NCBI GenBank assembly: GCA_000004985.1
Contig: GG738866.1
Length of the DNA: 64,000 nt
Origin: Naegleria gruberi
Lineage: Eukaryota
Reading direction: 5' to 3' (one strand)
Shown here: one piece after another, positions 3,201 to 41,939 of the stretch
Layout of the letters: each line of letters begins with the position of its first letter
Numbering within the stretch: the stretch's first letter is position 1
Notes under the pieces: model-generated
Seen by the model: the letters and a program-made list of their open reading frames with translations, nothing else
What the model was told of the DNA's origin: nothing
Database searches by the model: none
Translations under genes and position numbers: made by a program

Positions 3201-3292
3201 CACAATAAATTAATTTTTTTTAAAATTCTGTACTTTGAACGATAAAAGTTGGCGGGTTTTTAACTATTGTTTCAAGAACAAAAGGTAAAGAT

Positions 3293-3535: not shown

Positions 3536-3595
3536 AATACATTTAATATTTGAATTGAAAAAGTTTGAATTGTGAAAATGAACTAATTCATCACT

Positions 3596-4957
3596 TTAAA
3601 AGAAGGAAATGGATGGGATATCATAGCAAACTCTAGAGGCAATTGAGCATTGGGAAGAAACAGTAGCAGAACCTGTTATAGCCAACAGTGAATCTACAAA
3701 GAATTGTTTGGCATGAGCAATATTATCAAATAATCTCGAATAGGTCTGTCCAGTATTACCCACTTGTCCAAATCTTGCATAGACTGTGAAAATGTTATCA
3801 TTTAGAGCATTGTTTTGAAGTTGAAGCATGAGGAATTTGTTATCATTTCCACAATTAATAAGAGCATTGAATGTACAAGATGAACGATCTTCATAGGTTT
3901 CTCTATAAATTCTTCCACCAATCCTCATAATAGTACAATATGGATCAGTCACTAGACTATATCGTGAATTATTAGTAACAATTAATGATGATGAAGAGGA
4001 AGTATTTTGAAGAAGGGAGAGTTTTTGCAATTTGCCCAAAAGAACACTACTTTCATCTAATACCAACTCTTCCCTATTGCCTGTGGACAATAAATCAAGC
4101 CAAGGACATTGATGAGTAGAGTGGTCATCATAGCAAACTGTTGTATTGTTATATGGAACGGAAGATTCTATAACATTACTCAAAAGGAAGGCAGAATTGC
4201 TGACAAAATTGATGGGAATGTTTTGATAGATTGGATTGGTCTTAGTTCTCTTAGTGTGTTGTTTGATTTGTTGTTCGTACAGTGTTGGTGAAGGATGATC
4301 CTTACGCTTTCTTCTCTGAAAATTGTTGACTTTGGAGCAATAATTGAGAGAAAAGTCTTTGAGTGGAATGGTCAAAGATGAAGATGAACAACTCTGAGTA
4401 AAGATTGGTTGATGGATAAGTGGTTGTTGTTGATGTTGAGGAAGTGTTAGGAGAGGTGTATCAAAGATGTGGTCTAATTCTTCGAGGAGAGCATTTGGTG
4501 ATGAAGGATCCATAACATGTTGATTTTCTGCACTTGTTGTTGCAACAGAATTACTAATGGTACTGGTTGTTGTTGTTGATGGTGTTGTATCAATTTGCTC
4601 TATCAACTTGCTATCTTCACTTTCAGTGGTACTTGTTGTTGGATGTACTTGCTCTAATTCTCGTACCAATTCTTCAACTTTATCCGCATCATCAGTTGTA
4701 TCAACTTCTTTTGTTTGGTTATTCTTACTCACTGCACCATCAACATCTTCAGTATTGTTGCCATTTGTTGTTGTCGTTGAAGTAGTAGGTTCATCAATTA
4801 CTGTTGTTGTTATTGGTGGTGGAGCAATACTATCTTGTTGAATCAAGTCCAAACCCTCAACCTCCAGAAATTCCTCTTCTTCTTCTTCCTCTACAGGAGA
4901 TGAGGGTATGATCAGAGAGGACTCATCGGCAATCTTAGTGTCGACGTGTTCTGGCAT
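3596..4957 (-). CDS. Acidic Ser/Thr-rich protein with a WGR-like C-terminal domain.
   Basis: ATG at 4957-4955. The N-terminus has Glu- and Thr-runs. The C-terminal segment NKFLMLQLQNNALNDNIFTVYARFGQVGNTGQTYSRLFDNIAHAKQFF resembles the WGR-domain pattern KFY.iQl....y.v..rWGRiGt.Gq....f...eeA...F..., with ARFGQVG in place of WGRIG. Confidence 0.5.
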   Translation of the reverse strand: MPEHVDTKIADESSLIIPSSPVEEEEEEEFLEVEGLDLIQQDSIAPPPITTTVIDEPTTSTTTTNGNNTEDVDGAVSKNNQTKEVDTTDDADKVEELVRELEQVHPTTSTTESEDSKLIEQIDTTPSTTTTSTISNSVATTSAENQHVMDPSSPNALLEELDHIFDTPLLTLPQHQQQPLIHQPIFTQSCSSSSLTIPLKDFSLNYCSKVNNFQRRKRKDHPSPTLYEQQIKQHTKRTKTNPIYQNIPINFVSNSAFLLSNVIESSVPYNNTTVCYDDHSTHQCPWLDLLSTGNREELVLDESSVLLGKLQKLSLLQNTSSSSSLIVTNNSRYSLVTDPYCTIMRIGGRIYRETYEDRSSCTFNALINCGNDNKFLMLQLQNNALNDNIFTVYARFGQVGNTGQTYSRLFDNIAHAKQFFVDSLLAITGSATVSSQCSIASRVCYDIPSISFF

Positions 4958-5321
4958 TTATTTATGATAAAAAGATTTGGAATACGTTGAACCTCTCTTA
5001 TAAAACTACTAGTATGGCTTTTTTAAAATTATTAAATATAATTATTAATAATCAATCTCGAGAAACGTGTCTGATACGACGTCGTTTTGATCGAATAGAA
5101 ACTGATATTGTTCTATTTCACCATGTTCAGAGTAGCAATATGATAACGGTAATTTGTTTCTCGAGGCAAGTTTATGAATGACAAATAATCATATTACCTG
5201 ATTCACTAATTTTCCTTGTACATTGGATGATTAAAATCAAGATTCCATCCATTATAATCACTCATTAATTGCAATAACAACATTACGTGGTGTGTTTGTA
5301 GACAATAGACAACTCAAAAAA

Positions 5322-7949: not shown

Positions 7950-8145
7950 GCAGATCTGATAATAATAGATAGAAAAGTTCCGACATCCAATTCTTTATGT
8001 TCTACATGAGTGAACAAATTATTATTGAGCATGTTCGTTCAAGGAGAAAATGCACTGAACGAACATTACACACAATTAAATTCTCTATTTTTGTTACTCA
8101 GGGTTGGCGCCAATTTTACACACAAACACGCAAAAAAATAAGAAA

Positions 8146-11100
8146 ATGTCTTCCATATTTCACGTTCCAATCCTTATCCTTATTGTGCTTATTGCTTCAC
8201 AGTGGTGGTATTTAAATCAAGAAAGAACATTGAATCAATCATCATCACCAAATATCGATCTCGGCTTACTCTCAAAGGATTGTTCCTCTCAACTTGTTAA
8301 GAATTTCTACTTTGAGAAGGCTTTGAGCCAATATAAGGAAAAATGTCTTGTTGAAAAGAAGTGTGGTTCAGAATCATTAGAAGGTAGTGCTGAGAATGTA
8401 ATTAAGCAGATAGACGAATTAGTTTCCAATCAAAAAAAGCAAGCCTTGGAAAGAAGATGCAACAACCTTATTATTCATTCCGAAAATGTTCAAATTCTTC
8501 CAAAGCAAACAATTGTTGATCCAAAACTTGATGCAATTTGTGGTAATTCAACAGAATGCATTCAAACTGTTCATGAAATGATCATTTATCATCAGGCCTT
8601 TGCTTTTGCAGTTCAAAAGCTAAAGTTGGATCAAGAAAGTGTTAAGAGATTTTTACAATTACAAATCACCAATCTTGGAGAGAAGGCAAATTCAATTTTG
8701 GAATTTATCAGAAATCCTCAAGGTATTGAGGGTCCATCTGGTTTTTCCATTTCCTTGAAGCCAACACATTCCAGCCATCACTCATTCATCCAATCAGTTT
8801 TTTATGGTTTGATGGCATTGGCTTTGGGATGGTTGTATTTAATGTTCTGTACATTTGTTCAAGTAGAAGATGATTACTCGAAGAAAATGGCAGAGGCAAC
8901 TAGAGAGACAGATGAATTGAAAAAGAAATTGAAAGAGGCAACAGTAAAGGTTCTCGAAAAAGTTAAAGAACTCAATACTGAAAAGGAAAAATTAGAGCAA
9001 GATCTTTCAGATGAAAAGCAAACTTCAACAACATTGACAAGCGAGAAAAATCTACTAGAAAATGACCTTTCAACAATGACGACCAAGAAGAATCAATTAG
9101 AAAACGATTTAGCAAACGAAAAAAAATCTACAACATCATTGAGAACTCAAAAGAAAGAAATCGAGGACAAGCTTGAAAAATCCAAGAAGGAATACCAAGA
9201 CACTCTCAATAAGAAAGACAATGAACTAAAGAATACCAATGAAAAATTGAAAGTTGTGGAGAATGAGAATAAGCAATTCAAGAAGGATTTGGATACTAAG
9301 AGCAAGGATATTACCAACTTGGACAATTCGCTGAAGAAATCTAAGGAGCAAATTGCAGAACTTGAAAAATTGCATGCCCAACTAAAAAATGAAAAAGAAC
9401 AAACATTAAGAGATCTTTCGAATTGTAAACTCAGACTTGAAAAGGAGAATGAATTATGTTCTGCTCAACTCAAAAAGCTTGAACAAGAAATCAATAACCA
9501 AATCAATGATATGAAGCAAGTCGTCCAATCAAAGGTAGTATTAGAAAAACAACTCAAGAAAGTTGAGGAAATGCACAGTGAATTGAAGAGTGAGAAGGAC
9601 TTGCAGACCGAAGAATTTTCAAAAGAAAAGGAAAGATTGCTGGGAGAAATGAAGAATTTAGAAAATGAAGTAAAGAAACAAGCAAAGATTTGTGAAATAG
9701 AAAAGATCAACACTGAACTCTCTGAACAAATTCAACAATTATCATCTGAAAGAGATGCTATTCAAAACGCACTTAATGATGAAACTCAAAGATTAAACGG
9801 CCAAACAGAAAAGATCAGAAATGTATTGGTAGAGATCTCAACATTGAAGAATACAAATGAAGAACTTGAAGAAAAAATCAAATCTTTGGAGGAGGAAAGA
9901 TCAAACAAGGACCAAAGTATTGAATTTTTGCAAGAAGAAAGCAAGGTTCTATCTGAAACTGTTACAACACTTGAAACCAAATTGCAAGATATACATACAG
10001 AAGTTGAAGATATAAAGAAGCAATTGGAAGAAGTTGCATCTCTAAAGAAGCAATTGGGAGACAAGAAAATTGAATTGCAACAAATTAATGATGGCTTGAA
10101 TAATTTAGCTGTCCAACACCAAAAGGAATTGGAAAAAGAAAAACAAAAGATTGAAGAGTACGAAAGAACTATTACTGAACTCAAAAATTTACTTTCCGAA
10201 ATGAATAATGAGTTGATGGAAGACAAGTCAATAGAATTAGAGGCAGAACTGAAAGTTGTAAAGGAGTCTAACAGCAAGCTTTTGAAATGCATGGAAGAAA
10301 GAGATGAACAGATAACTAGCCTAGAGGAAGAAATTAAGGGTTTGAAGTCTCAAACCGAAACTCTTTCTGAAGAGGCAAAGAACTTGAAAGAATCATTGAA
10401 AGAAAAGGATAATGAAGTTGTGATATTGACAGAATTAGTGAAATCTGAAGATCAACTTTTGCAAGTTGACCAGGCTGAAATTAACAATTTGAGTAGTATT
10501 GTTAATCAAGCAGATGAAGGAATTACTTATCTTAAAAACGATTTGAATACTATTAGAACTGTTCTTGCTAGCACTGAAGAAAAGCTTAATAAGTCTGTAA
10601 AGGAGAAGGAAAGAATCTATGATGAATATGAAACTGTTCAAAGGGATGTAAAGAGATTAACAGAAGAAAAGCTTGAAATGGAGAAGGAAATCCAAATGTT
10701 AAAGCAAAGAAGCCCTCGTACATTCAAATCTTCACCATCAAGGGAGAAGGAAGAAAATAGGCGATTGAAGGAGAAGATTGAATTATTGGAAAAGAAACTC
10801 AAGTTATCTTTGAAAAAGATTCCATCTGATCAAAATCTCATCAACAACCTACCAATCATCAATACAACAGCTACCACGCCTTCCAGTTCTTCAACAAGTA
10901 CTTCACCAAGCACTGAACAGGATAAGGATGAATTAATCAAACGATTGAAGGAAAAGCTTGAAATTAAGGAAAACAAATTGAAGGCTGCCATTGTGAGTAA
11001 GCTTGAAGTTGTTGAAAGACTCAAAAACTATGAAGCAGATGCTCACTTCAGCACAGCTTCTGTTGGACCTGGAGCTAATCAACCACATCAGCAACCACAA

Positions 11101-11154
11101 CAACCAGTACAACAGAAAGTGGCAACTCCAAGAAATAACAAGAAGAATTTGTAA
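8146..11154 (+). CDS. Hairpin-anchored giant coiled-coil protein. Plus-strand paralog of the 22190..31034 gene.
   Basis: Position 8104 is a TTG alt start; the real ATG at 8146 gives MSSIFHVPILILIVLIASQWWYL, an N-terminal signal anchor. A Cys-containing approximately 200-aa loop follows (DCSSQLVKNFYFEKALSQYKEKC...). Then a second TM (FIQSVFYGLMALALGWLYLMFCTFV). Then about 750 aa of heptad coiled coil containing the KQAKICEIEKINTELSEQIQQLSSERDAIQ unit. A Q/P-rich tail follows. Confidence 0.7.
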   Translation: MSSIFHVPILILIVLIASQWWYLNQERTLNQSSSPNIDLGLLSKDCSSQLVKNFYFEKALSQYKEKCLVEKKCGSESLEGSAENVIKQIDELVSNQKKQALERRCNNLIIHSENVQILPKQTIVDPKLDAICGNSTECIQTVHEMIIYHQAFAFAVQKLKLDQESVKRFLQLQITNLGEKANSILEFIRNPQGIEGPSGFSISLKPTHSSHHSFIQSVFYGLMALALGWLYLMFCTFVQVEDDYSKKMAEATRETDELKKKLKEATVKVLEKVKELNTEKEKLEQDLSDEKQTSTTLTSEKNLLENDLSTMTTKKNQLENDLANEKKSTTSLRTQKKEIEDKLEKSKKEYQDTLNKKDNELKNTNEKLKVVENENKQFKKDLDTKSKDITNLDNSLKKSKEQIAELEKLHAQLKNEKEQTLRDLSNCKLRLEKENELCSAQLKKLEQEINNQINDMKQVVQSKVVLEKQLKKVEEMHSELKSEKDLQTEEFSKEKERLLGEMKNLENEVKKQAKICEIEKINTELSEQIQQLSSERDAIQNALNDETQRLNGQTEKIRNVLVEISTLKNTNEELEEKIKSLEEERSNKDQSIEFLQEESKVLSETVTTLETKLQDIHTEVEDIKKQLEEVASLKKQLGDKKIELQQINDGLNNLAVQHQKELEKEKQKIEEYERTITELKNLLSEMNNELMEDKSIELEAELKVVKESNSKLLKCMEERDEQITSLEEEIKGLKSQTETLSEEAKNLKESLKEKDNEVVILTELVKSEDQLLQVDQAEINNLSSIVNQADEGITYLKNDLNTIRTVLASTEEKLNKSVKEKERIYDEYETVQRDVKRLTEEKLEMEKEIQMLKQRSPRTFKSSPSREKEENRRLKEKIELLEKKLKLSLKKIPSDQNLINNLPIINTTATTPSSSSTSTSPSTEQDKDELIKRLKEKLEIKENKLKAAIVSKLEVVERLKNYEADAHFSTASVGPGANQPHQQPQQPVQQKVATPRNNKKNL

Positions 11155-13426: not shown

Positions 13427-13834
13427 ATGTATAATCTAGAACAATTAGAACAACTTTCACTCTACGTGATGAGAAGGTTTGGAGAGTATTTCCAAGTCGT
13501 CTCAGCCTTTTCCAAAATTAATAACAACAACTCGGATAAGATTGAACAAATCAGAGGAAGAATTAACGAACAACGTGAATTGTTGGATACATTAAAGAAG
13601 GACGTTGAAATCAATAGGAACAAGTACTCGGAATCAGAAATCAAAGCCTTTGAAATTGAAATTGAGAAGAGTGAGAAGAGGCTAGCCAAGCAAGTTGAAA
13701 TTCTTCATCAATACGAAAATCAAGTTGATACAATGCATCATACGACATTTAATTTGAGTTTTAAATTAATTGTACAGGTGATCATTGCTCTAACTGTTTT
13801 GGCGTTAATGTTTTATATGGTGTTTTTTTGGTAG
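13427..13834 (+). CDS. Small tail-anchored coiled-coil protein (SNARE-like or Sec20/Use1-like?).
   Basis: ATG at 13427. It is 135 aa: a central heptad region (EIKAFEIEIEKSEKRLAKQVEILHQYENQ), then a single C-terminal TM (LIVQVIIALTVLALMFYMVFFW) with almost no lumenal tail. Confidence 0.45.
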   Translation: MYNLEQLEQLSLYVMRRFGEYFQVVSAFSKINNNNSDKIEQIRGRINEQRELLDTLKKDVEINRNKYSESEIKAFEIEIEKSEKRLAKQVEILHQYENQVDTMHHTTFNLSFKLIVQVIIALTVLALMFYMVFFW

Positions 13835-14190: not shown

Positions 14191-17100
14191 ATGAAACAGT
14201 TACTCTCACCGAAATCTATATTACTTTTTATAATACTATCTATAGCTTCTATTGGATGGATGGTTATTGGCCAAGAGTTGCCCTACTCTTCATCATGGTC
14301 AATTACCAACTCGAATATTCAAACATGTAATACTATACGTGGTCAACAGGATGATTACTTTTATATGGGAGGTAAATTCAGTGGCAGTATTGATACAAGT
14401 GCTATAGGAGTCATATCTCCCGATAGATTTAATAACTCTGTAGTTTTGGCAACATCATTAACGAGTGAGGCGTATGCACTTAAGGTTCAAAAGTCAACTG
14501 GTAAGGTTGACTCATCTATTCAATTTGCACCAAGTGGCAATACAGAAACGATTCAAAGTTCAGAAATTATTTCAATAGGAACGAGTACTCAATTTCAAAT
14601 ATTTGCAGGAATTATCAATACAAATCAAGGAATTTTCATTTCAAAGTTTAACACCAATGGAATGGAATGGACACAAACCTATTTATTTTCGAGTGGAAAT
14701 TACATTACAGTGAGAGATTCAAAAGTGGTTGATACGAGTATTGTCATTGTAGGAACATACAGAGGAGACATTTCCATTAGTAATGGTTCAATTGCTCTCA
14801 CTTCATCCTCGAGTCAAGATTACGAAAACATGTTCATTGCTATTTTGGATATGACTGGATCTATTCAATATATCTATACTAATAATGGTAATAATGCTAA
14901 AGTCATACCACAGAATTTGCACTTGTCTTCAAATGGTGAATTTTGCTATGTTATGGGAGTTTTCAGCGGATCAACTTTGTCATTCACCAAATCCACTAGC
15001 TCATCAGAACAGCTAACTCTCACTTCAACAACTTCTACAGATCAGTACGATTTATTCCATCTCAAATATTCCATCACTAGTAAGGAGTTGGTTTGGCTCA
15101 TGGGCACTACAGGACCTCATCAGATGGACTATTCATACAAGATTGTTGGCAGCTCACCTTCGACCATTTATGCCTTCAGGGATATTATCATTGATCAGGG
15201 ATATAGTGAAAGCAGTGATTGTGGCAGCCAAACAGATGTTCCTATTGCAACTCTGACAAGGAATTTATTCACACTTCTCTCATCGAATGTTCTCTTTGGT
15301 GGAGCATCAGCCACAGGTTCTCAGAGTTTGAGCTTTTTCAAAGCTTTGGATTTTGCAGGATTTTCCAATTCAATTCTCTTCGATAATGGAACTACTTCAT
15401 CTGTTATGAACATTTCCAGATCGACACCACTAACTCTCTCTTCGACAGGATTTACTACCTGTCCTAACAAACAAGCTCTGATGAACTATTCCACAGAGTA
15501 TACATTGAATTATGCCAGTGGTTCCGAGACTATCCTTCTCAAATCCTATGTGAGCATACCAAAGTTATTGTTCACTTCCAATTACAATGTTGGTGTAATT
15601 AATTATGCTGGTATTACATCCACTTTGACATTTAACATGCCAAGTACACTGCTGAGTGTTATCGATAAGAATCTGGTTGTTGATGTTGGTGGAACGAAAA
15701 GGCCAGTGAAGAATTCCAATAATGTCTATACGGCAGACTTGTTTTCAACCACTGTAGGATGGAATAATATCACTATTTATTTCAATAATACTGCTCAGAA
15801 CAGGTATGATTTGATTTCTATGAATTCTGTCAAGACTTTCTTCTTTGATGATTCTTTGGTTATCAGTATTCAGAATAGTACAATTTTATTCAATAGCAGT
15901 ACTTTGAATAATGGTAGAGGTACACTAACATTGACAGGATTATTGAATTCCACGTATAATTTCCCACAGGAATATGTCAGCTCTATTATGTGTAGAGTGG
16001 CTCAACAAAATTTTGCTACCAATATTGATGGTAATCAGATTACATGTCAAAATGTTCCATTTTCAGAGAGGAACACGACAGTAGTACTTGTCTATAGATA
16101 CAGCAACTCTATTTTCTATAACATTTCAAGAAGTTTGGATTTGAGTTTTATTGAAACACGGACACTTACAACTTCTTCACAATACAGGGTGATTACAACA
16201 GATGAGCAAACCAAGGGATCGTTTGCTTTGTCTTTAACAATCGGTAAAACAATGGGCTCTTTGGATGTCAAATTGCAAGCAACAAATCAAAATGGAGCTG
16301 CTTCTTATTTACCATTTACAGTTTCATCAGGTACAAGTATTTCTGCAACCTTGGCAGTGGCTCAATTTGAAAAGGCAAATTTGAAATTTATGGTAAAATC
16401 TCAGAATGACTATGTGGATTTTACCAACACAATTTCTATTCAATTCTTGAAGCAAGTCAAGTTTACATCCTTGTCGAGTACCATTGATAATTCGAGACAA
16501 ATGAAGACCGCATTCAGTATTCAACCAAACCTGATAGATTCATTGAAATCTCAGCTAACTTGCCAATATAATGAGAGTCCAACATTGAGAACTGCTTTGA
16601 ATAGTACTGATAATACATGTAATATTGACAATCGATTCCTTTCCACAAACAATACTCTCCAATTATTGCTTAATATGGGAAATAATGTTTATTTACAAAT
16701 ATCAGACAGTATTTCATTGACATCTCCCTCACTACCAACAATATCCTTCCTATTTACTCCTAATTTTGGTATCAGTGGATTTACTAATATTACAACCGAA
16801 ATTACATCTCAAGATTTGATATTTGAACAATTGAAAAGAAATTTACAAATAGAAATTAATTCCATTCGTTATACACCAACTGTTGGGTCAGATGGAAAGG
16901 TTTCATTTCCACTTGTAACCTCAGTAGCCGGCTGGAATAATTTGACAGTTCTTGGAAAATATTCAACCAATGACACTTCATACTCTGTGATCAGCACTCA
17001 GAGTAAGATTTATTTCTTTAATACTCCACAAACAAATATTTTCACTTTCCCTAATGGAAATATCACACTCCTCACTCCATCCAGCAGTAGAAATTTCATG

Positions 17101-20100
17101 ATTGACTTGGTATTGAGTTCTCCCTTTGATATTCCTTATACCTTACTGAGTCCAAACAACTTTTTCTGTAACATATTTGGAGAGTCATATAGTGCCCAAT
17201 TTGTTTCCAGTACCAGAGTTCAATGTCAAAATGTAGTAAGCAGAGAAGGTGAAACTGATTCTTTTATCACAACTTCTATTCGAAATACCACATTTGAAAT
17301 ATCTTCGAGAAGTCTGTTCACCTTTGTTAAAACAAGAGAAATCAAACCTGTTGGAGTGTCTCTCATTCAATCTACTGATTTTTATATTGGAACATTGCCT
17401 CAAACACAAGCAACCTATTCGTTGCAGATTAATATTGAAGATAGCTTGTTCACTGCTCTACAAATTGAAAATACTCAAAAACTTGCTATTCAACTTACTG
17501 ATCTGCTAACCAATCAGAAACAAGTCAGATTCCCACAAATTACCAGAGGATTAAACATGTCTACTCTTTCACTCAACTTGGACGTTGCCACTTCCCAGTC
17601 CATTTTCAAATATGAAATTAGAGTATTGTTTAAAGGACTGGAGATTTCTCAAGTTGCATTAAAGTATCTTCTTGTGAGAGAATCACCAATTGGAAAGGTA
17701 ATTTCCTCCAGAGATTCCACTGATAATTTACTCATCAACATGCCAAGAATTTTATCAACAGCAACTTCAATTAGTGACGATGAAAAGTTAATTATGGACA
17801 GAGTGTACTGCTCTCTTGGAGATTCAACTCTTTCCAAGGTTACCTATTCTGTGAGTGGTGGTATTCAATGTAAATTTGCAACTGATTTCACATCAACACA
17901 AACCAAATCAGTTCAACTCTTCATGTCCATCAATACTGTGGCCACAAATAGTTCAGTTATCAAAATATCCTCCAACTCACAACAAGCATATCCAATCTAT
18001 TGTTATTCAATTCCTCACTATTTACCAACTGTTTGTTCTTCAAAGGGAACTTGTAAGCAAACTGATAACTGTACATGTACCAACAATTTCCAAGGAAATG
18101 ATTGCAGTTTCACCCAATGTTTTGGAATTGCATCCACTGATAAGACTGTCTGCAGTGGATACGGTCAGTGTCCAACCTCAAATAATTGTGTTTGTAATGC
18201 AGGATTTAGTGGCACAAGATGTGAAAATAAGGTCATGTATGTTTCTGAGGACAAATCATGGCTATCCACCAGTGAATCTATGAGCAGTTTACCAAGATCG
18301 CAACTCTCTGCTCTAATAGAAACAGAGAGTTTGTCCAAAGTTGAATGTGCATCTTTATTAGCAACTGCATCTATTGATACCATTGGAGTTGATGCATTTT
18401 GTTTTGTGAACTCTGTTGATATTGTAATCATGTTGAACAGGAACGTTATGAACAATACTGTATTACTATCTTCCTCGACTATTGGTAGCATCCTTTCGAA
18501 ATCATTTTCACAATATCAAGTGCTTGACACTAAAGGAAAGTCAACCAGTCCAGAAATTCTATTAAGAACTAGTTTCTCAAGTGTGAATTTCCCTGCTGTG
18601 GTTGAACCGCTCATTGTCACTGCATCACCTCTCTCAAATTTAGGTCTATCATGGCAAAGTGATGATCCAACTATTAACAGTCAACTTTCTTCATTTGCCA
18701 ATCAGTCAATTATCAAACTGAATTTAGGAGCAAAAACAAGACAAAATGTAATTTCTAATGGAGCTGTTAATTTGGTTTTGCAAGTTGCCGATTCAACATT
18801 CAATACTTTGACCAAATATTCCACTAAATTGCTTTTGAATCAATCTTCCAACTCTGGAGAAGCAATATTCAATTATGGAGGATCTCAAATTGAATGCCAA
18901 TCCTTTGCCTCATGTGATATTGCCTTTAGTGTTGCTCCTATTAAGGGGTCTTCTATTAGGTCATCTTTCAATCCTGACATTGGAAATATAACTACAAACT
19001 ACATTCATAATTTGAAAAGTTTTGCAGAGGGTTGTTCTACTGTATATTCCCTGCGTAGCAGTGAGAGCAAACAACTGTGTATTAAGATTAGAGATAAGGG
19101 TGTTATTCAATACTATTTGGATGTCAATACTCAACAAGATAATTCCATTGTAGTCACTTTGAGTCAATTCAACACTTCCTCTAAAGTATATTCAATTATT
19201 ACCAGTTCTAACTCTGATATTATACAATTGATTAATTTGAATACTAACACTTCTGTGCAAGGCGCGAAGGATGGAAGTAGTTCAGCAGTATATTTCAAGG
19301 GAATCAAAGAGCAAGAACCATACGAGATTAGATTTACTAGTTCATTAGGAAAGGCCTCCCTCAAGATTCAATATTCCACAAGTATGCAACTCAAGCTCTT
19401 AACATTCATTCCTAAAGTAATGGGAAGAAAATCTTCATTGATATTGTCTTCTCTGGTTGACTCTGATAGCAGCACAGTTCAACAAGTTGATTTCCTGTTA
19501 ACAAAGAAAGGCCAATCACAATCCACGTCTCTTCCAATAGTTCAACAATATAATGATCTGACCTTTTCACAAGCCCTGTTGAATGCTTCACTTTTAGATA
19601 GTGGATCTTTCTACATTCTGAGAGTTCAATCAAGGAATGCTAAAGGACATGTAACCTATATTGAACAATCTTTCTATGTACAATTAGAACCAAACTATAA
19701 TATCAATTGTGCTATTACTCCAAAAGAAGGAATTGCTTATGAAACAGAATTTACAATTTCATGTTTATCCAATAATTTAGATTTAGATACTTATCAATTC
19801 CTCATAACGAATGGTACTCATCAATTAGAGCTTTCCAAAGGAAGAAAGAGAGCATTCTTTACTAGAATTGGATTTTTACAAAATGCCAAACTTCAAGTCA
19901 AAACTAATGATGTTTGGAATAGTGAAAAGACAACAGAGTTCCCAATCCAACTCAAACATCCAAAACAAGTTTATCAAACATCTTTAGAATTTTATCAATA
20001 TTTAACAAGAAAAGTTCAGGATCTTCTCAATGAAGAAGTTTCTCCAAACAGTTTAGGATTTGATTATGTCAACAGTGTCATCACCTTCATGTCAATTCTT

Positions 20101-22182
20101 GGTGCTGACTCGAGTATTGTACCAAATTATGAATATAGAACAGAGTTGGGTTTGAGCTTGCTGGATATATTCGAAAAAGTCGTTGGCTATGCTAAACAGA
20201 ATAAGGATTCTACGTATATTGGAAGAAGTTTACCGATAATGAATCAATTCTTGCAACAATTTTCAAATACCACACAAACAAATAGAGATAGAGTCTATGG
20301 ACTGATCAACTCTACGTTGGATATATTACAAGACTTTTCATCAACTAATCCAAGTAGTAGTATTAATGATATATTTACTATTGTTGACAGAATTATTCCA
20401 CTAGTAGCAACTGATTTACAAACTCAATTATTCAACAAATTGAGAATAGTTAATCAACAGAATTTGTTTGGAAAGATGAAGAATGGTTATTTGGTTTCAA
20501 ACTTCTCCAAACTTTCCAATACTACTCTTGAAAATTATCAAATCATTAACTTGAATGTGTTGGGAAGAAAAATTTCAGAGCCAATCAATCTCGGTACACT
20601 TTCACTCAATCTTCCTTCACAAATTAGTTCAGATTCTTTGAATTCTCTATTTGAAGTGAGTGCTCTAATTTATCAAACCAAATCCAAAACAAGTAGAACA
20701 TTACAACAAGCTACCTCTATTCCTAATGTACAAGTTGCACTAACGAAGAATTCCATTCCACTTACCGATTCTTCACTAAATGTCAACATTACCTTCCCAA
20801 TCCAATTGAATAGTAAGACAAGAGCCCAATGTAGATCATTTTCCTTCCAGGAAGAACCAAAGAATCACACAACATTCCAATCCGAATCAGCAGTGGTATG
20901 CTTAGTGGCACTCTCAGATTTGAATAGAAACTTGTATATTTATACCTATGAAGGTATTTTTATAGGACCACTGCCACAAAATAGTGATAATGTGAAAGGT
21001 CCACTTCTTCAGGATAACACCTTGACCATAGCTTTGGCCACCATTTTGTCAACTGTTGGTTTGATATTTATATGCTGTTCACTCCTGGTATTGTTGTTCA
21101 TTATTGGAAAATGTAGAGGAAGAGGAAAGAAGGAAAATACACCAAATATGACAGAGTTTACCTATAAGGCATCTGGATCTCATTCTCCAATTGGAATTTC
21201 AGATCATTCTTCATCTGATAAGAATTCTGATACTTCATCAGAAAAACAACAAACTGAAAAGAATATCAATCAACGAGTGACTGAGAATGTTGAGCTATTG
21301 AATGGACAATATCAATTATTAGAAACCATTTCCATTCACTCCAACTATACTCTCTATAGAGCTAATAATATTAGTACAGGTCAGGTTGTGTGTATTAAGA
21401 AGATTGGATTTTCTTCTTTTGAGGAAATTAATTCATCATCCTCTGTTATTGTGAAAGAGTATACGAACATGTCTCGTACTCAACATGCTAATATTGTCAA
21501 GTTACACGAGGTGTTTGTTGATACAAGTCTTAAGGCAGTTTGTTTAGCTCTTGAATATTTCGAGCTTGGAAATTTGAATGAATTACTACTCAAGCGAATT
21601 CAACAAAACCAAATATTTGATGAGATTCATATTGGTCAGATATTGTATCAACTTTCCCAAGCTCTTTCGTATCTTCATGATGAATGTGGATTGTGTCACA
21701 GGAATATCAGGTTGGAAAACATATTTGTAAGACAATTTACACCACAAAAAATTGATATTTGTTTGGGTGAATTTACAGATTCGAGATCCAGAAACTCACT
21801 CAAAATAGAACATGATGTGCAAGACCAATCGTTTGGATCTGCTATAAGTTCTTATAAGTTTGGTAATTTTACCAAAGCTGTGAAGGAAAATGCAATCAAA
21901 TCTACCAGTGACCAGTTTACGTCTGAAGATACATTCCAGGTTGCGTGTGTAATGTACAAACTAATGTCGTTTGATATGGAGAGTAAGGTCAATTCATTAT
22001 TTGAGGAGTATGAGTTTGAAAAAGACGTATTCACATTGCTAGAATCAAGGATACACTCATCATATTCTAGTGAAATAGTTTCCATCATCTTGTCAATGTT
22101 TGCTCGAGAAGAAAAAAATCGTCCAACAATGAACCAAGTCACCAATTTATTGGGCAATGTATTCAAGTTTGAAACACAATAA
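14191..22182 (+). CDS. Giant (2663 aa) type-I membrane receptor with a cytoplasmic pseudokinase domain.
   Basis: It is a single 7992-nt ORF with an ATG at 14191. It starts with a signal peptide (MKQLLSPKSILLFIILSIASIGWMVIG). The ectodomain is about 2250 aa, S/T/N-rich, with many N-x-S/T sites and two tenascin-type EGF modules around nt 18030-18230 (CSSKGTCKQTDNCTCTNNFQGNDC...CSGYGQCPTSNNCVCNAGFSGTRCE). One TM lies at about 21025-21110 (TIALATILSTVGLIFICCSLLVLLFIIGKCRGRGKK). A kinase-like domain of about 270 aa follows. It has VCIKK (a VAIK-like Lys), HRNIRLEN instead of HRDLKPEN, LGEF instead of DFG, and no GxGxxG loop. Confidence 0.8.
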   Translation: MKQLLSPKSILLFIILSIASIGWMVIGQELPYSSSWSITNSNIQTCNTIRGQQDDYFYMGGKFSGSIDTSAIGVISPDRFNNSVVLATSLTSEAYALKVQKSTGKVDSSIQFAPSGNTETIQSSEIISIGTSTQFQIFAGIINTNQGIFISKFNTNGMEWTQTYLFSSGNYITVRDSKVVDTSIVIVGTYRGDISISNGSIALTSSSSQDYENMFIAILDMTGSIQYIYTNNGNNAKVIPQNLHLSSNGEFCYVMGVFSGSTLSFTKSTSSSEQLTLTSTTSTDQYDLFHLKYSITSKELVWLMGTTGPHQMDYSYKIVGSSPSTIYAFRDIIIDQGYSESSDCGSQTDVPIATLTRNLFTLLSSNVLFGGASATGSQSLSFFKALDFAGFSNSILFDNGTTSSVMNISRSTPLTLSSTGFTTCPNKQALMNYSTEYTLNYASGSETILLKSYVSIPKLLFTSNYNVGVINYAGITSTLTFNMPSTLLSVIDKNLVVDVGGTKRPVKNSNNVYTADLFSTTVGWNNITIYFNNTAQNRYDLISMNSVKTFFFDDSLVISIQNSTILFNSSTLNNGRGTLTLTGLLNSTYNFPQEYVSSIMCRVAQQNFATNIDGNQITCQNVPFSERNTTVVLVYRYSNSIFYNISRSLDLSFIETRTLTTSSQYRVITTDEQTKGSFALSLTIGKTMGSLDVKLQATNQNGAASYLPFTVSSGTSISATLAVAQFEKANLKFMVKSQNDYVDFTNTISIQFLKQVKFTSLSSTIDNSRQMKTAFSIQPNLIDSLKSQLTCQYNESPTLRTALNSTDNTCNIDNRFLSTNNTLQLLLNMGNNVYLQISDSISLTSPSLPTISFLFTPNFGISGFTNITTEITSQDLIFEQLKRNLQIEINSIRYTPTVGSDGKVSFPLVTSVAGWNNLTVLGKYSTNDTSYSVISTQSKIYFFNTPQTNIFTFPNGNITLLTPSSSRNFMIDLVLSSPFDIPYTLLSPNNFFCNIFGESYSAQFVSSTRVQCQNVVSREGETDSFITTSIRNTTFEISSRSLFTFVKTREIKPVGVSLIQSTDFYIGTLPQTQATYSLQINIEDSLFTALQIENTQKLAIQLTDLLTNQKQVRFPQITRGLNMSTLSLNLDVATSQSIFKYEIRVLFKGLEISQVALKYLLVRESPIGKVISSRDSTDNLLINMPRILSTATSISDDEKLIMDRVYCSLGDSTLSKVTYSVSGGIQCKFATDFTSTQTKSVQLFMSINTVATNSSVIKISSNSQQAYPIYCYSIPHYLPTVCSSKGTCKQTDNCTCTNNFQGNDCSFTQCFGIASTDKTVCSGYGQCPTSNNCVCNAGFSGTRCENKVMYVSEDKSWLSTSESMSSLPRSQLSALIETESLSKVECASLLATASIDTIGVDAFCFVNSVDIVIMLNRNVMNNTVLLSSSTIGSILSKSFSQYQVLDTKGKSTSPEILLRTSFSSVNFPAVVEPLIVTASPLSNLGLSWQSDDPTINSQLSSFANQSIIKLNLGAKTRQNVISNGAVNLVLQVADSTFNTLTKYSTKLLLNQSSNSGEAIFNYGGSQIECQSFASCDIAFSVAPIKGSSIRSSFNPDIGNITTNYIHNLKSFAEGCSTVYSLRSSESKQLCIKIRDKGVIQYYLDVNTQQDNSIVVTLSQFNTSSKVYSIITSSNSDIIQLINLNTNTSVQGAKDGSSSAVYFKGIKEQEPYEIRFTSSLGKASLKIQYSTSMQLKLLTFIPKVMGRKSSLILSSLVDSDSSTVQQVDFLLTKKGQSQSTSLPIVQQYNDLTFSQALLNASLLDSGSFYILRVQSRNAKGHVTYIEQSFYVQLEPNYNINCAITPKEGIAYETEFTISCLSNNLDLDTYQFLITNGTHQLELSKGRKRAFFTRIGFLQNAKLQVKTNDVWNSEKTTEFPIQLKHPKQVYQTSLEFYQYLTRKVQDLLNEEVSPNSLGFDYVNSVITFMSILGADSSIVPNYEYRTELGLSLLDIFEKVVGYAKQNKDSTYIGRSLPIMNQFLQQFSNTTQTNRDRVYGLINSTLDILQDFSSTNPSSSINDIFTIVDRIIPLVATDLQTQLFNKLRIVNQQNLFGKMKNGYLVSNFSKLSNTTLENYQIINLNVLGRKISEPINLGTLSLNLPSQISSDSLNSLFEVSALIYQTKSKTSRTLQQATSIPNVQVALTKNSIPLTDSSLNVNITFPIQLNSKTRAQCRSFSFQEEPKNHTTFQSESAVVCLVALSDLNRNLYIYTYEGIFIGPLPQNSDNVKGPLLQDNTLTIALATILSTVGLIFICCSLLVLLFIIGKCRGRGKKENTPNMTEFTYKASGSHSPIGISDHSSSDKNSDTSSEKQQTEKNINQRVTENVELLNGQYQLLETISIHSNYTLYRANNISTGQVVCIKKIGFSSFEEINSSSSVIVKEYTNMSRTQHANIVKLHEVFVDTSLKAVCLALEYFELGNLNELLLKRIQQNQIFDEIHIGQILYQLSQALSYLHDECGLCHRNIRLENIFVRQFTPQKIDICLGEFTDSRSRNSLKIEHDVQDQSFGSAISSYKFGNFTKAVKENAIKSTSDQFTSEDTFQVACVMYKLMSFDMESKVNSLFEEYEFEKDVFTLLESRIHSSYSSEIVSIILSMFAREEKNRPTMNQVTNLLGNVFKFETQ

Positions 22183-22189: not shown

Positions 22190-25100
22190 TTATTTCCTTG
22201 GTGATCTTGGTGAAATTTGATCGTAGGAAACAGCAGCAAAAGCTTTTTGCAAGCTAGCTAACTTGATCTCAATTTCATCTAATAATTGAGGAGGTGAAGA
22301 AGGAATTGGGTAAAAATAATCTTCTCTCAAAGGTGATTGTGGAATATCCATATGCCCTTGGGAGATTGATAAACCTTCTTTAGTTGTTTCTGCCATGATA
22401 GTAGCTAATTGCTCAAGTTGGCCAATAGCAAATTTCAAATCATTCTCGAGTTTCTTTGTGTAAGCTTCCAAACCTTGTATACCGTCCGTAAGAGTCTTGA
22501 CGGTTTCTTGTTGGCGTAATATTTCCCCATTCAGATTTTCAATTGTTCCTCTTAGTTCTGAACTTTCCTTTGCGTTTTGGTTTTTTAACTTTTCCAACGC
22601 TTCTTGCTTGTCAACAAGTAGCTCCTTTTGAGATTGAGATAATTTTTCATTCTCTTGGAGAATACCATGTAAATCTTTCATAGACTCCTGCAAGAGTTGA
22701 ATCTCCTTCTTTGCCTGACTCTTTTCCTTCTCTAAAATTGATCGTAGCTCGTCTTCTCTTATTTTCATTTCAGCATCTGCTTTTTTCTTCTCATTAAATA
22801 CCTTTTGCATTTCATCTTTTAGCAACTTTAAAGTTTCTGTCTGCAAGAAAATACCTTCTTCTAGCTGTTTTGTTTTTTTCCTTTCCTTTTCTAAATAATC
22901 TTTAAATGTTTCCAAATCATTCTTAAGGCGCCCAATATCTTCAACCGATTTTTCTTGATATTCTTTAAACTCCTCTCCCTTGGTTCTCACTTTTGATTTT
23001 TCCTTTTCCAGCAATTCTGCTTTTGAATTAACCAACTCTTTAAGCTTGTTTGTTTCTTCTTTTTCAACCAAAAGGTCCATCTCAATCTTGCTCAAGTCAA
23101 TTTCCATATTCTGTTTATACAGGTTCATTTCCTTTTCAAATTCTTTCTTTTCATTCATAATTTTTTCTATCTCTTTGTTTTTTTGTGTAAGCTCTTCTTC
23201 AAATTTCTTAAGGAAGTTGTTTAAATCTCCAATTTCTTTCTGATTTTGATTTTTCAAGTCTGTCAAGCTTCTATTTTCCTCTGAAAGTTCGTTTTCTATA
23301 TGCTTCAAACTCTCTACCACCTTCTCAAGTTCTTGTTTAACTGCTGATTCTCTTTGTAACTTGGATTCACCTTCTAAGTTTGCACGTTCAATGCCTTCAA
23401 GAGATTTTTCTAATTCCTGCTTGACATTTGCGAGCTCATTGGATAAATCTTCTTCTTTTTGATTCTTTTCAATCATCAACTGTTTGATATCAACAAGATC
23501 TTTGTGTAATTCTCTTACAGAGTTACTTTCTCTAGTGATTTGTTCTTCCCTTTCGCTTAACTTTTCTTTAAGGGAGCATATCAAGTTCTCCTTTTCAGAT
23601 AATTGAGTGGATAGATTGGCCTTCTCAGATATTATAACGGCCAATTGTTCTGTTGCATTCTTGGCCTCCTCTTCAAGAATTTTAAGCTTGATTTCTCTTG
23701 AAGATTTATCTTCCAAAAGAGAATTGAGTTCCTCTTGAAGATTTAATATATCTTTTTTCAGATTTGTCAAGTCTTGTTGCAACTCACTGTTTTCGTGCAT
23801 TAAATCTCTCACCCTATGCTGTTGTGCCTCTATGAAACTCTCAGTTTTGACTCTTGATACAGTATTCTCAGATACGATTTCTTTTAGTCTCGAGTTGTCT
23901 TTTTCGAGATCATTAACACGGTTTTTGAGCTTTTCAGTTTCATCCAAGATTGCTTGCTTTTCATCTTTTTCAGATTGGATATTTTCTGTTAGTGAGATTA
24001 CCAAGTTAGATTTTTCTTCGTGCAATTTATCAATAGTAGTTCTCAAGTTTTCAACTTCACTCTCGCTTGAATGAAGAATACCTTGTATTTTAGCTTTAAT
24101 GTCTTCTTTTTCTTTCTTGAGGTCATCCCTTTCCTTTTCGATAGCAGACGATTTGTTTTCCAATTGTTTCAACTTTCCATCTGTATCTGAAATAACTTTT
24201 TGTAGATTTTCAATGTTCAAATCAGAAACTTCCAATTTAGAACATAAATCCTTATTAATATCTTTGAGAGCTACAATCTCATTATTAAGAACAGAACATT
24301 CTTGTTGTAATTGGTCATTCTTCGATTTCAATTCTTCTAGAGAGGATGTAATATCTTGAATCCTTGCTTCCGTATCCAATAACTTTTCAGTAAGGGTGGT
24401 ATTTTGGGAAATAAAATTAATTTTCTCATTTTCTGCAATAGTAGTCATTTCTATTAGCTGTTGTTCGAGCTCTTTGTACTTCTGCATTTGATGTGACAAA
24501 TCAGACTTTGAATTTGAAAGCTCGTTATCGAGAGCTTCCTTTTGTGAAAGTAGTTGTAGATTTTCATCCTTGGTGGATTCAATTGTGTTTTGCTGATCTT
24601 GGACTTGTGAGGTGCAGTCATCAAGTGACTCCTTTAATTTTAGAATTTCTGATTGTGATTGAGAGTACTTTTCAGTTAACTCTTGATTTTTCTCCTCTTG
24701 GACTTTTCTAAATAGATCAAACTCCTTGCATTTAGAATTGATCGATTCATTCATAGAAAATAATTTCGATTCCTTTTCCTGTAAGAGTTCTTCTTTTTCT
24801 GCAATATTATTTCCCAAGGTTAATATTTTATCTTTCAACATATCCATTGTGGAATTCTTGCCGTAAAGCTCATTTTTCATTCGATTAAGTTGATCTTCCA
24901 AATTGCTTAGTGAGTTTGTAAGCTCGTTGTTGGTAGTTTCTAATGTTTGCTTTTTCTCAAAAAGGCCAGTGTTAATATTTTCCATTTCACAAATCTTTGC
25001 TTGTTTCTCTTCGACAATTTTCTTTTCCTTCATCCTCCAACTTCCTCATTTCTTCCAACAGTCTTTCCTTTTCTTTAGAAAATTCTTCACTCTTCTTTTC

Positions 25101-28100
25101 ATTTTCCTTCTCCAATACATTGATGGTCTCTTCAAGTTTCAATACGCAATTATCATACTTATTCTTATTCTGTTCCATTTCTTGTCTTGCCTTTTCCAAT
25201 TCATTCTTTGTATCTTCAAGCTGTCTAATTATTTCTTCTTGCTTTTCACTTAGTGCCAATTTCTTTGCCTCAAGATCTAAATTATGTTGTTCAAGTACTT
25301 GAACCTGTTTTTTCAAATCTTCAATACAGAGAGTATCTTGTTGTGCTCTCTGTTTCAACTCTACGCTAGTATTTTCTGCTTCATTAAAGCGTTCTTCAGC
25401 ATTTGCACGAAGGGTTTCTTCTTTCAACAAACCAATTTTCAAAATATCTAGCTTCTCTTGAAGAACTACTCGATCACTTTCAAGCTTCTTCTTGTCATTA
25501 TTTAAATTCTTTTCTGACTCTTTCAGAATTGAAATTGACTTTTCTAGTTCTTTCACTTTATCTGTTTGCTTCTTAGCATTCATGGTAGCATCCTTGAGTT
25601 CATATTTCAATGTATCAATAGTTTTACCAAGATATTTCACTTCTTCTAGGAGTTTTGATTTCTCTGATTCTAATTGCTTAATTTTTGAATTGTGTGAATT
25701 AACTTCTTTTGCATTTTCTTTGAGTTGCTCTTTTTGGGTGTTCATAACATCTTGAAGAACTTTGATTTTCTTTTCTTGAGTATTACACATTATCTGTGTT
25801 TCTTCTTTGTCTTTAGTCAATAAGTCAGCCTCCTTAGATTTATCAAGAATCTCTTTAGACAATCTTGTTATTGCTTCAGAAGTAGTTCGTTCAAGATTAT
25901 ACTTTTCTGTATTTAATTGAGATATATATTGATCCAACATAGTCTTCTGTTGCTCAACATTGTTAATGCTCTCTTTCAGCTCTTGGTTGGAGGATTCAAG
26001 ATTCTCTATAAATGATTGTTTTTCTTTTGATGTTTGAATTTCCTTGGTAAGAGTTTCTTGAATAACATTTCTTTCAGATGATAATTGTTGAATTTGTTCA
26101 GAGAGTTCACAAATCTTTGCTTGTTTCTCCTCGACTATTGCCTTTTCCTTCTTTACTTCATCCTCCAACTTCCTCATTTCTTCCAACAGTCTTTCCTTTT
26201 CTTTAGAAAATTCTTCACTCTTCTTTTCATTTTCATTTTCCAATACATTGATGGACTCTTCAAGTTTCAATACACAATCACCATACTTATTCTTATTCTG
26301 TTCCAATTCATTCTTTGCATCTTCAAGCTGTCTTATTATTTCTTCTATATCTTTCTTTAAATTCTGTTCTGACTCTTGCAGTGTTTCAAGGGCCCTCTCC
26401 AGCTCTTTCACTTTATCTTTGTACATTTCTAAATTGTTGGTAGCGTCTTTGAATTGAGATTCTAAATTATTAATAGTTTGACCAAGATCCTCCAATGTTC
26501 GTTGGCGATTATCATCTTCCTGCTGTTTGTCATTAATAACCGAAGCAAGTTTAATCTCGCCTTGTCGAACATTTTCACGTAAATTGTTTACAACTGTTTC
26601 CAATTCTTGATTACATTTGGTGAGGTTTTGCACTGTGTCTTCAAGATGTTTCAATTTATCAAGAAGGGTAATATTTGAGGATGCCAGTTGATTTGAAAGT
26701 TCCTTTTCTTTTCTGAAACCATATTGTATATTTTGTAGCTCCTGTGAAATACGAGTGTTTTCTTTTTCTAATTGATTGTTTGCTGTTGATAAAGCCTGGT
26801 TATCGTCCGATAACTTGAGCAGCAAATCTTCATTTTGTCTAATATTGTCTGTCAGGTTTGATTTCTCTGATTCCAACTGTTTGATTAGTGAAATTTGTGA
26901 AATGGTTTCTTTAGCACTTTCTTTGAGTTGCTCTTTTTGAGTGTTCAAAAGGTCTTGAAGAACTTTGATACTCTTGTCTTTAGCATTACATGCTGTTTCA
27001 GTGTTGCTTATCCTTTCTTTAAGCTCTTTAGTAGAAGTCTCAAGAAGGTTCTCCATTATTGATTGTTGCTCTTTTGATAATTGAATTTCATTATTGAGAG
27101 ACTTTTGAATGGCATCTCTTTCAGATGATAATTGTTGAATTTGTTCAGAGAGTTCAGTGTTGATCTTTTCTATTTCACAAATCTTTGCTTGTTTCTCCTC
27201 AGCTATTTCCTTTTCCTTCTTTACTTCATTTTCTAAATTCTTCATTTCTTCCAACAGTCTGTCCTTTTCTTTAGAAAATTCTTCACTCTTCTTTTCATTT
27301 TCCTTCTCCAATACAGTAATAGATTCCTTTAGTTTCAATACACAATCATCATACCTATTCTTATTCTGTTCCAGTTCATTCCTTGCATCTTCAAGCTGTC
27401 TTATTATTTGTTCTCTATCACTCTCAAGGCTCTTCTTGTCATTATTTAAATTCTTTTCTGACTCTTTCAGAATTGAAATTGACTTTTCTAGTTCTTTCAC
27501 TTTATCTGTTTGCTTCTTAACATTCATGGTAGCATCCTTGAGTTCATATTTCAATGTGTTAATGGTTTTACCAAGATATTTCACTTCTTCTAGGAGTTTT
27601 GATTTCTCTGATTCTAATTGCTTAATTTTTGAAGCATTTTCTTTGAGTTGCTCTTTTTGAGTGTTCATAACATCTTGAAGAACTTTGATTTTCTTTTCTT
27701 GAGTATTACACGTTGTCTGTATTTCTGCTTTGTCTTTAGTCAATAAGTCAGCCTCCTTAGATTTATCAAGAATCTCTTTAGACAATCTTGTTTTTTCGTT
27801 TTCCATGACTTCCTTTTGGGTTTTCTTTTCTCCAGAAAGATCTATTATTTTGTTTTCTAACTGTTTAATACGTGACTGCTGTTCAAGTAAATCAAGTTGT
27901 TTAGACTCTAAATTATTAGCCAACTCTATGTTCTGAGTTTTGATTTGGGTCAAGTCTTTCTCTAATCCTGTTATTGTTTCATAATTTGCTTGTTGAAGAT
28001 TGTCCTTTTCTGTATTTAATTGAGATATATATTGATCCAACATAGTCTTCTGTTGTTCAACATTGTTAATGCTTTCCTTCAACTCTTGGTTGGAGGATTC

Positions 28101-41919: not shown

Positions 41920-41939
41920 AAATTAAAAAGGAAAATAAA

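Follow-up and report, generated by a model that had tools for sequence, protein, structure and literature searches.

Receptor-linked pseudokinases have been well studied in animals and plants and have hardly been explored in free-living protists. The metazoan proteins HER3/ErbB3, PTK7, RYK, ROR and EphB6 are of type I and combine a large modular ectodomain and a single transmembrane (TM) helix with a kinase fold that lacks catalytic residues. HER3, whose catalytic loop reads HRN, acts as an allosteric activator and partner. In plants, BIR2 and STRUBBELIG belong to the Ser/Thr receptor-like type, carry an inactive kinase domain and serve as scaffolds or regulators of active co-receptors. In this study, we analysed a 64,000-nucleotide stretch of the Naegleria gruberi contig GG738866.1 (assembly GCA_000004985.1; hereafter the window, to which all gene positions refer). 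One of its genes, NAEGRDRAFT_67254, encodes a giant protein predicted to be a type-I receptor with a degenerate kinase domain on the cytoplasmic side.

A comparable layout occurs in another amoeboid phagotroph. The TM kinases (TMKs) of Entamoeba have a signal peptide, a Cys-containing repetitive ectodomain, one TM helix and a cytoplasmic kinase-like domain, and are possibly receptor pseudokinases. PATMK of E. histolytica, a phagocytosis protein of this family, is without a Gly-rich motif, and no kinase activity could be demonstrated for it (PMC2211552). To our knowledge, NIMA-related kinases (NEKs) are soluble cytoplasmic or ciliary kinases, and we know of no earlier description of a membrane-tethered NEK-like domain. 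In Giardia, another excavate, the attachment disc contains NEK pseudokinases that have a structural or regulatory part in it (PMC3243723).

The gene and its product

The open reading frame (ORF) of NAEGRDRAFT_67254 runs for 7,992 nt and encodes 2,663 amino acids (aa) and a stop codon in a single exon, exactly as a preliminary description of the sequence had stated. Stop codons are expected at 7.0% of codons from the base composition of the window, and a run of 2,663 stop-free codons would arise by chance with P ~1e-84. The translation matched a database entry of the same length with 100% identity, a "predicted protein" of N. gruberi (EFC44789.1, XP_002677533.1, UniProt D2VEE9), and there, too, the gene is modelled as this one exon. 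The ORF is a real gene, and the sequence of its product is already public, as that of an unnamed predicted protein. Because the match is complete, the DNA of the window is that of N. gruberi, a heterolobosean amoeboflagellate (Discoba), and an amoebozoan or dictyostelid origin was rejected. The earlier emphasis on the rarity of receptor-type kinases in amoebozoa therefore does not apply.

Three short ORFs of 104-142 aa lie within the giant ORF, either in another frame or on the opposite strand (17855-18283, +; 18165-18491, -; 21852-22166, -). They are most likely chance ORFs.

A NEK-like kinase domain with degenerate catalytic motifs

The C-terminal part of the protein has a kinase fold, as had been proposed. 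Pfam Pkinase (PF00069) matched aa 2388-2651 with E 4.6e-21 and 75.8 bits against a cut-off of 31.7, covering profile positions 15-258 of 263; the same model scored 90.4 bits on the orthologue from Naegleria fowleri described below. A profile made from the two species was compared with the PDB. NEK2 gave the highest score (70.9 bits, E 1.2e-18), followed by a Wee1-like kinase (57.7 bits), NEK1 (57.3 bits) and NEK7 (56.6 bits).

The catalytic motifs were read from alignments with NEK2 (Table 1). The β3 lysine of VCIKK is kept, and so is the αC glutamate (E2423), which aligns to NEK2 E55 and is invariant in the orthologue. The Gly-rich loop is absent, its position containing no glycine. HRDLKPAN of NEK2 corresponds to HRNIRLEN, in which Asp is replaced by Asn and Lys by Arg, and the following Asn (Asn2510) is kept in both species. 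The readings of the β3 lysine, the Gly-rich loop and the catalytic Asp agree with the preliminary description. Its claim that DFG is lost also held, but the replacement, given there as GEF, was one position out of register. The aligned triplet is E2527-F-T, with Asp changed to Glu and Gly to Thr in N. gruberi, and CLGEF is invariant across both species. Two residues of the structural core, the αF Asp and the αH-I Arg, occur unchanged in both species. No APE motif could be aligned in the NEK2 alignments. Overall, the β3 Lys and the αC Glu are retained, and GxGxxG, the HRD Asp and the DFG Asp are not. By motif definition the domain is a pseudokinase: two of the three defining residues (VAIK Lys, HRD Asp and DFG Asp), the two aspartates, are lost, together with the Gly-rich loop.

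Membership among the receptor tyrosine kinases was rejected. The best profile matches are Ser/Thr kinases, Pkinase outscored PK_Tyr_Ser-Thr on this domain, and the sequences AAR and RAA are both absent from the catalytic loop. For Naegleria, the number of group-A tyrosine kinases is given as 0 (Table 1 of PMC4342544).

The protein might instead be an active but atypical receptor kinase, in which Glu2527 binds metal in place of the DFG Asp and no classical base is needed for catalysis. Weak activity that proceeds without this base has been claimed for HER3, which also has HRN. The kept β3 Lys, αC Glu and catalytic-loop Asn, the acidic residue conserved at the DFG position in both species and the good conservation of the domain would all fit such an enzyme. 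We consider it improbable, since the Gly-rich loop position of N. gruberi has no glycine at all and no APE motif can be aligned. The catalytic Asp, moreover, is Asn in N. gruberi and Ala in N. fowleri (HTA), which argues that the position is not under selection for one chemistry.

A syntenic orthologue in Naegleria fowleri

An exhaustive HMMER search was made with aa 1350-2275 against 1.84 billion protein cluster representatives. The matches were the query itself and one protein, FDP41_011304 of N. fowleri (XP_044567087.1, 2,993 aa). The two proteins are collinear from the signal peptide to the C-terminus with 31% identity, and the N. fowleri gene is one uninterrupted ORF of 8,982 nt. Immediately upstream of the giant gene, both species have an orthologous gene for a protein of 135/136 aa (44% identity, E 7e-32). 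Genes for a RhoGEF, an NGP1-type GTPase, HSP70 and sortilin also lie near the giant gene in both species, in rearranged order. The collinear protein, the shared upstream gene and the shared neighbouring genes make positional orthology secure.

This orthologue bears directly on the question of whether the ORF is a gene-model artefact, in which two or more genes, or an unspliced intron, are read as one frame. The length of the ORF is unusual, and an alternative N. fowleri annotation contains only a 921-aa fragment of the orthologue. We regard an artefact as extremely improbable. The chance estimate given above is vanishingly small, and an independent N. fowleri locus has the same domain order in an uninterrupted ORF, so the idea that the C-terminal region belongs to a separate gene fails. 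Retained introns are unlikely because insertions specific to N. gruberi relative to the orthologue are at most ~9 aa and are too short.

The degeneracy of the kinase domain is shared. In N. fowleri, the Gly-rich loop reads ISGDEYE, the β3 Lys and the αC Glu are kept, HRD is HTA with the following Asn kept, and DFG is EFG. The architecture is also the same, which supports the receptor-like pseudokinase reading of the preliminary description. Since both species share the catalytic losses, these probably predate the split between N. gruberi and N. fowleri.

Could the cytoplasmic domain be an inert remnant without a signalling role, attached to a giant structural or adhesive surface glycoprotein? 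The ectodomain is very large and modular, its putative propeller, repeated modules and EGFs are typical of adhesins, and all phosphotransfer motifs of the kinase domain are lost. The conservation pattern makes this quite unlikely. The kinase domain ranks high in conservation: it is 39.8% identical between the two species, and most of the ectodomain is 26-33% identical. Some cytoplasmic stretches do not differ at all, namely LLNGQYQLLE just before β1, CLGEF..SRSR.SL where the activation segment begins, FGNF and RPT, which would be unexpected in a decaying remnant at such divergence. The losses probably predate the split, and the domain is nevertheless better conserved than most of the protein. 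Judged by this conservation, it is an old, maintained pseudokinase.

Other homologue searches were word-indexed. With the full-length query they returned only the protein itself, and with aa 1850-2663 they returned nothing, not even its own entry. A word-indexed search with the two-species profile did not recover FDP41_011304, and its only additions were an N. gruberi protein rich in EGFs and three kinases with marginal scores. The absence of matches in these searches is weak evidence, because they missed the protein's own entry and a 31%-identical orthologue; a word-indexed result of "no homologues" is untrustworthy for long Ser/Thr-rich proteins. Scans of metagenomes with conserved peptides found no relatives of the giant protein. 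In the exhaustive search of aa 1350-2275 and these scans, the ectodomain has no detectable relatives outside Naegleria.

Comparison with described receptor pseudokinases

Judged by its sequence, the giant protein is not a member of the metazoan, the plant or the Entamoeba TMK families. It shares the overall plan of the metazoan receptor pseudokinases, but their domains are of the tyrosine-kinase group and that of N. gruberi is Ser/Thr (NEK)-like. DFG and a Gly-rich loop are both present in HER3 and both missing from the N. gruberi domain. An origin independent of the metazoan proteins is indicated because the kinase group differs and the ectodomains are unrelated. Plant receptor-like pseudokinases have kinase domains of the IRAK/Pelle (receptor-like kinase, RLK) family and leucine-rich repeat (LRR) ectodomains, both unrelated to the N. 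gruberi protein.

The Entamoeba TMKs are similar in layout but come from another supergroup, and their ectodomains are far smaller and built of CXXC repeats (Gal/GalNAc-lectin-like). PATMK also keeps the catalytic residues. No sequence relationship to the Entamoeba TMKs was detected in the word-indexed searches or in the exhaustive HMMER search of aa 1350-2275. The kinase domain itself is closest in score to NEK2, with NEK1 and NEK7 near the top of the matches. In contrast to the known NEKs, the NEK-like domain of the giant protein sits C-terminal to a TM helix, which is itself preceded by a signal peptide and a 2,250-aa ectodomain.

A dead kinase of NEK-like type linked to an ectodomain of this size, its pseudokinase state kept in both N. 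gruberi and N. fowleri, would mean that the receptor-pseudokinase principle arose independently in Discoba. Tethering to the membrane would also be an unusual use for a kinase family that is normally tied to cilia and the cell cycle.

Membrane topology and ectodomain modules

The hydropathy profile of the whole protein contains only three peaks: one at the N-terminus (aa 3-12), a marginal one at aa 1397-1398 and a strong one from aa 2276 to 2293 and beyond. The predicted TM segment, aa 2276-2306, reaches a Kyte-Doolittle value of 2.83 and is the only strong internal hydrophobic peak. The K/R-rich stretch GKCRGRGKK follows it, which corresponds to the positive-inside arrangement of a type-I protein. 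The EGFs and the conserved Cys pairs all lie on the N-terminal side of the TM helix. On this heuristic hydropathy basis, the architecture is that of a type-I receptor-like protein, with a signal peptide, an ectodomain, a single TM helix and a cytoplasmic kinase domain. The giant single-TM form in the preliminary description is thus supported by hydropathy and by the same architecture in N. fowleri.

The predicted propeller head is followed by a tandem duplication. Repeat 1 (aa 431-859) and repeat 2 (aa 860-1270) matched each other in BLASTP with 60 bits, E 3e-14 and 24% identity over 255 aa. The Cys pairs of the duplicated module (601/619, 791/810, 993/1012 and 1207/1227) recur at intervals of ~200 aa, and all eight cysteines are invariant in N. 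fowleri. The fold of the module may be Ig/IPT-like.

Two EGF modules come next. At aa ~1277-1349, EGF_Teneurin scored 31.8 bits (cut-off 24.3) and EGF_2 scored 31.2 bits (cut-off 22.1), each over two stretches. The Cys spacing, C-x10-C-x5-C-x5-C-x-C-x8-C, is identical in both modules, and all 12 cysteines are invariant against the orthologue. Two tenascin-type EGFs had been expected directly before the TM helix. Their number was correct, but they lie in the middle of the ectodomain, ~930 residues N-terminal of the TM helix. As to their type, the two profiles above exceeded their cut-offs, but the EGF_Tenascin model gave only E 0.82.

The ectodomain had also been described as heavily N-glycosylatable, and this was not borne out. 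Ser and Thr make up 24% of its residues, and it contains 37 N-x-S/T sequons, where composition predicts 42 ± 5.5. The sequon number is therefore a consequence of composition and not a selected feature. Only eight sequon columns are common to the N. gruberi protein and the orthologue.

Table 1. Features of the giant N. gruberi protein, their positions in the window and their identity to the N. fowleri orthologue.
Feature	Position	Strand	Basis	Identity to orthologue
Complete single-exon coding sequence of NAEGRDRAFT_67254 (2,663 aa + stop)	14191..22182	+	ORF; database identity; chance ~1e-84; orthologue also a single ORF	31%
Signal-peptide-like N-terminus, aa 1-27, MKQLLSPKSILLFIILSIASIGWMVIG	14191..14271	+	hydropathy peak aa 3-12+; hydrophobic N-terminus also in N. 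fowleri orthologue	
N-terminal head, predicted β-propeller, aa ~37-430	14299..15480	+	only aa ~37-305 modelled, predicted local distance difference test score (pLDDT) 50-82	32.9% (propeller region)
Tandem duplication of ~400-aa module, aa 431-859 and 860-1270	15481..18000	+	BLASTP repeat 1 against repeat 2; Cys pairs	
Two 6-Cys EGF modules, aa 1271-1344, teneurin/tenascin-like spacing	18001..18222	+	Pfam; spacing; orthologue	50.6%
Post-EGF region, aa 1350-1925, weak REJ-like similarity, ending in predicted β-sandwich module aa 1831-1925	18238..19965	+	BLASTP; hhalign; AlphaFold2 (AF2)	46.8% (aa 1831-1925)
Predicted α-helical stalk segment, aa 1926-2095, 7 helices	19966..20475	+	AF2 secondary structure, pLDDT 45-63	
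Membrane-proximal β-rich segment, aa 2096-2262, with conserved Cys2214/Cys2237 and C-x-V-x-x-S-D-L	20476..20976	+	invariant orthologue columns	
Predicted single TM helix, aa 2276-2306, then basic stop-transfer KCRGRGKK	21016..21108	+	hydropathy	
Predicted cytoplasmic juxtamembrane linker, aa 2307-2367, Ser/Thr/acidic-rich	21109..21291	+	sequence; identity to orthologue	26%
NEK-like pseudokinase domain (by motifs), aa 2368-2663, preceded by invariant LLNGQYQLLE	21292..22179	+	Pfam Pkinase; profile against PDB; orthologue identity	39.8%
Gly-rich loop remnant ISIHSNY, aa 2380-2386, no glycine	21328..21348	+	aligned to NEK2 IGTGSYG; N. fowleri ISGDEYE	
Retained β3 lysine K2403 (VCIKK)	21397..21399	+	aligned to NEK2 K37; invariant in orthologue	
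Degenerate catalytic-loop triplet H2503-R-N2505	21697..21705	+	NEK2 alignment; N. fowleri H-T-A	
Degenerate DFG triplet E2527-F-T2529	21769..21777	+	LGDFG/LGEFT alignment; N. fowleri E-F-G	
Rest of ectodomain				26-29%

The stalk and its resemblance to REJ and GAIN regions

The predicted β-sandwich module of the post-EGF region (aa 1831-1925) contains the motif C-x-I-x-P-K-E-G-I-A-x-E-T-E-F-T-I-S-C, and the AF2 model has eight strands with pLDDT up to 79. In the model of aa 1800-2275, this β-sandwich is followed by ~7 helices and then by strands (pLDDT 30-79, mean 46). The part covering aa 2096-2262 is unreliable, with pLDDT ~30. Foldseek with this model gave only spurious helical-repeat and Ig-like matches (TM-score ≤ 0.25) and no meaningful one for the helical segment (aa 1926-2095).

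A similar succession of segments was observed in another N. gruberi protein, here called P0005 (5,238 aa). NHL-like repeats occupy the N-terminal part of this giant surface-type protein, which also contains long EGF arrays and three modules in tandem. Each of the three runs from a REJ domain (Pfam E 1.8e-22) through a helical segment to a β segment that ends in a 4-Cys pattern, C-x15-C-x12-CxC, reminiscent of GPS. The modules are followed by one TM helix and a short tail. The ectodomain of this heterolobosean protein is polycystin-1/suREJ-like. Pfam detected neither GPS nor GAIN in P0005, and a profile of its REJ-helical-β modules found nothing relevant in the PDB. Nothing on GAIN domains of Naegleria came up in the literature searched.

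The motif C.ITP..G...ETEF..SC is common to the giant protein and the C-terminal part of the Pfam-REJ regions of P0005 (BLASTP E 3e-4). Comparison of the giant protein with the P0005 modules by hhalign and HMMER yielded no more than a local match of 33 columns (hhalign local probability 69%) or a collinear hhalign alignment over 472 columns (probability 56%, E 1e-4). Like the sea-urchin REJ and polycystin-1 ectodomains and P0005, the giant protein has EGFs, a long β-rich region with the shared motif, and a helical and β-rich membrane-proximal segment. It differs from them in that its single TM helix is followed by a pseudokinase, in place of the 11-TM polycystin body or a short tail.

One explanation would be that the stalk is a REJ plus GAIN/GPS region of the polycystin-1/sea-urchin-REJ type. 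In that case the tethered ectodomain would control the pseudokinase, and the receptor would be autoproteolytic or mechanosensitive. The order of EGFs, weak REJ-like region, β-sandwich, ~7 helices and a β-rich segment with two conserved cysteines before the TM helix resembles REJ plus GAIN, and the motif is shared with P0005 modules that themselves continue into a helical and a 4-Cys β segment. On the other hand, Pfam found no REJ (PF02010), GPS or GAIN match at E ≤ 10, either in aa 1350-2275 of the giant protein or anywhere in the N. fowleri protein, and the hhalign probabilities are no higher than given above. The putative GAIN-B part is the one modelled at pLDDT ~30, and the fold search returned no relevant match. 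An HL/T-type cleavage motif is absent before the TM helix, where two conserved cysteines are found against four in GPS. We therefore consider this explanation unlikely, and a GAIN/GPS-like nature of aa 2096-2262 is conjectured.

Proposed function

We lean, with moderate confidence, towards an adhesion or sensing receptor: a type-I surface glycoprotein, found only in Naegleria, whose output would be a catalytically dead, NEK-derived pseudokinase. The head and stalk would bind an extracellular ligand, the substratum or the surface of prey, and the signal would be passed on by conformation or clustering. An active kinase or a cytoskeletal regulator would be the partner of the pseudokinase, which would act on it by docking or allosterically. 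Phospho-acceptor or docking sites may lie in the Ser/Thr-rich linker and in SRSRxSL, a conserved motif of the activation segment. The giant protein itself would phosphorylate no substrates.

Several points weigh against this proposal. We infer surface localisation from hydropathy only and the loss of kinase activity from motifs. The retained Lys, Glu and Asn and the acidic Glu at the DFG position make nucleotide binding or weak, atypical catalysis possible. The domain is NEK-like and closest to NEK2, by a margin of 13 bits and not by phylogeny. The AF2 models of the ectodomain were built from two-sequence alignments and are of low confidence (mean pLDDT 46-48). The exhaustive HMMER search covered aa 1350-2275, and the kinase domain lies outside this range. 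Finally, the locus tags and accessions of both orthologues had no mention in the literature searched.

We also considered a broader version of the adhesion or sensing receptor, to which we give a low probability. Here the Heterolobosea would have independently invented a receptor-pseudokinase device, in which a propeller/EGF/REJ-GAIN-like ectodomain that senses force or a ligand acts, through the one TM helix, on a NEK-derived pseudokinase that allosterically controls an active NEK or another kinase. Contact with the substratum, prey or, for N. fowleri, host cells would in this way be tied to the programme of cytoskeleton and basal bodies governed by NEKs, such as the switch from amoeba to flagellate.

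N. fowleri is the lethal brain-eating amoeba, and its orthologue is predicted to be a surface protein of very large size; no other genus appeared in the searches run. If expressed on trophozoites, the orthologue would be a candidate receptor for adhesion or feeding and possibly a target for diagnostics or antibodies.

Genomic neighbourhood

On the minus strand, four consecutive ORFs in different frames (29634-31034, 28231-29637, 24987-28262 and 22190-25033) encode ~3,000 aa of coiled coil rich in Glu, Lys, Leu and Gln. These four residues make up ~50% of three of the products and 38% of the most upstream one. The ORFs look like one giant gene with the N-terminal membrane anchor MQATRINLFLSALALVVLIISQ. 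Two of them have near-identical ends (...LLEEM.KLE.E.K....RETSKDL*), and 22190-25033 and 24987-28262 both start with ...EKQAKICE.E.INT.... This points to short introns or frameshifts, located at corresponding places in an internal repeat. The region 22190-31034 has a strong negative AT skew and no Pfam matches. The coiled-coil gene converges on the pseudokinase gene, and the 3' untranslated regions of the two must overlap because only 7 bp separate their stop codons.

On the other side of the locus, the ORF at 8104-11154 (+) encodes 1,016 aa with an N-terminal anchor, is rich in coiled coil (47% Glu, Lys, Leu and Gln) and has no Pfam match. The anchor and the motif after it (ILILIVLIASQ...LLSKDC) resemble the start of 29634-31034 (...LSLLEQDC), and it may be a paralogue of the coiled-coil gene. 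The small gene directly upstream of the giant gene (13427-13834, +; 9074-9484 of the N. fowleri locus L001) encodes a 135-aa protein of no Pfam family, with a coiled-coil region and a C-terminal hydrophobic tail of the tail-anchored type. Among the immediate neighbours of the giant gene, Pfam found nothing except a BTB domain.

The genes for Sortilin/VPS10, the RhoGEF, the NGP1-type GTPase and HSP70 lie at 5292-7949 and 39790-46272 in the window, and at 1761-8911 and 21767-24301 in L001. The same genes are present in different order and orientation, which indicates local inversions within a conserved neighbourhood of ~60 kb. In the window, three genes are each split into two adjacent ORFs across which the Pfam matches continue: sortilin (5292-6416 and 6525-7949), HSP70 (44534-45472 and 45556-46272) and an ABC transporter (46398-47594 and 47579-48307). 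These splits are probably short introns, unlike the intron-less 8-kb giant gene.

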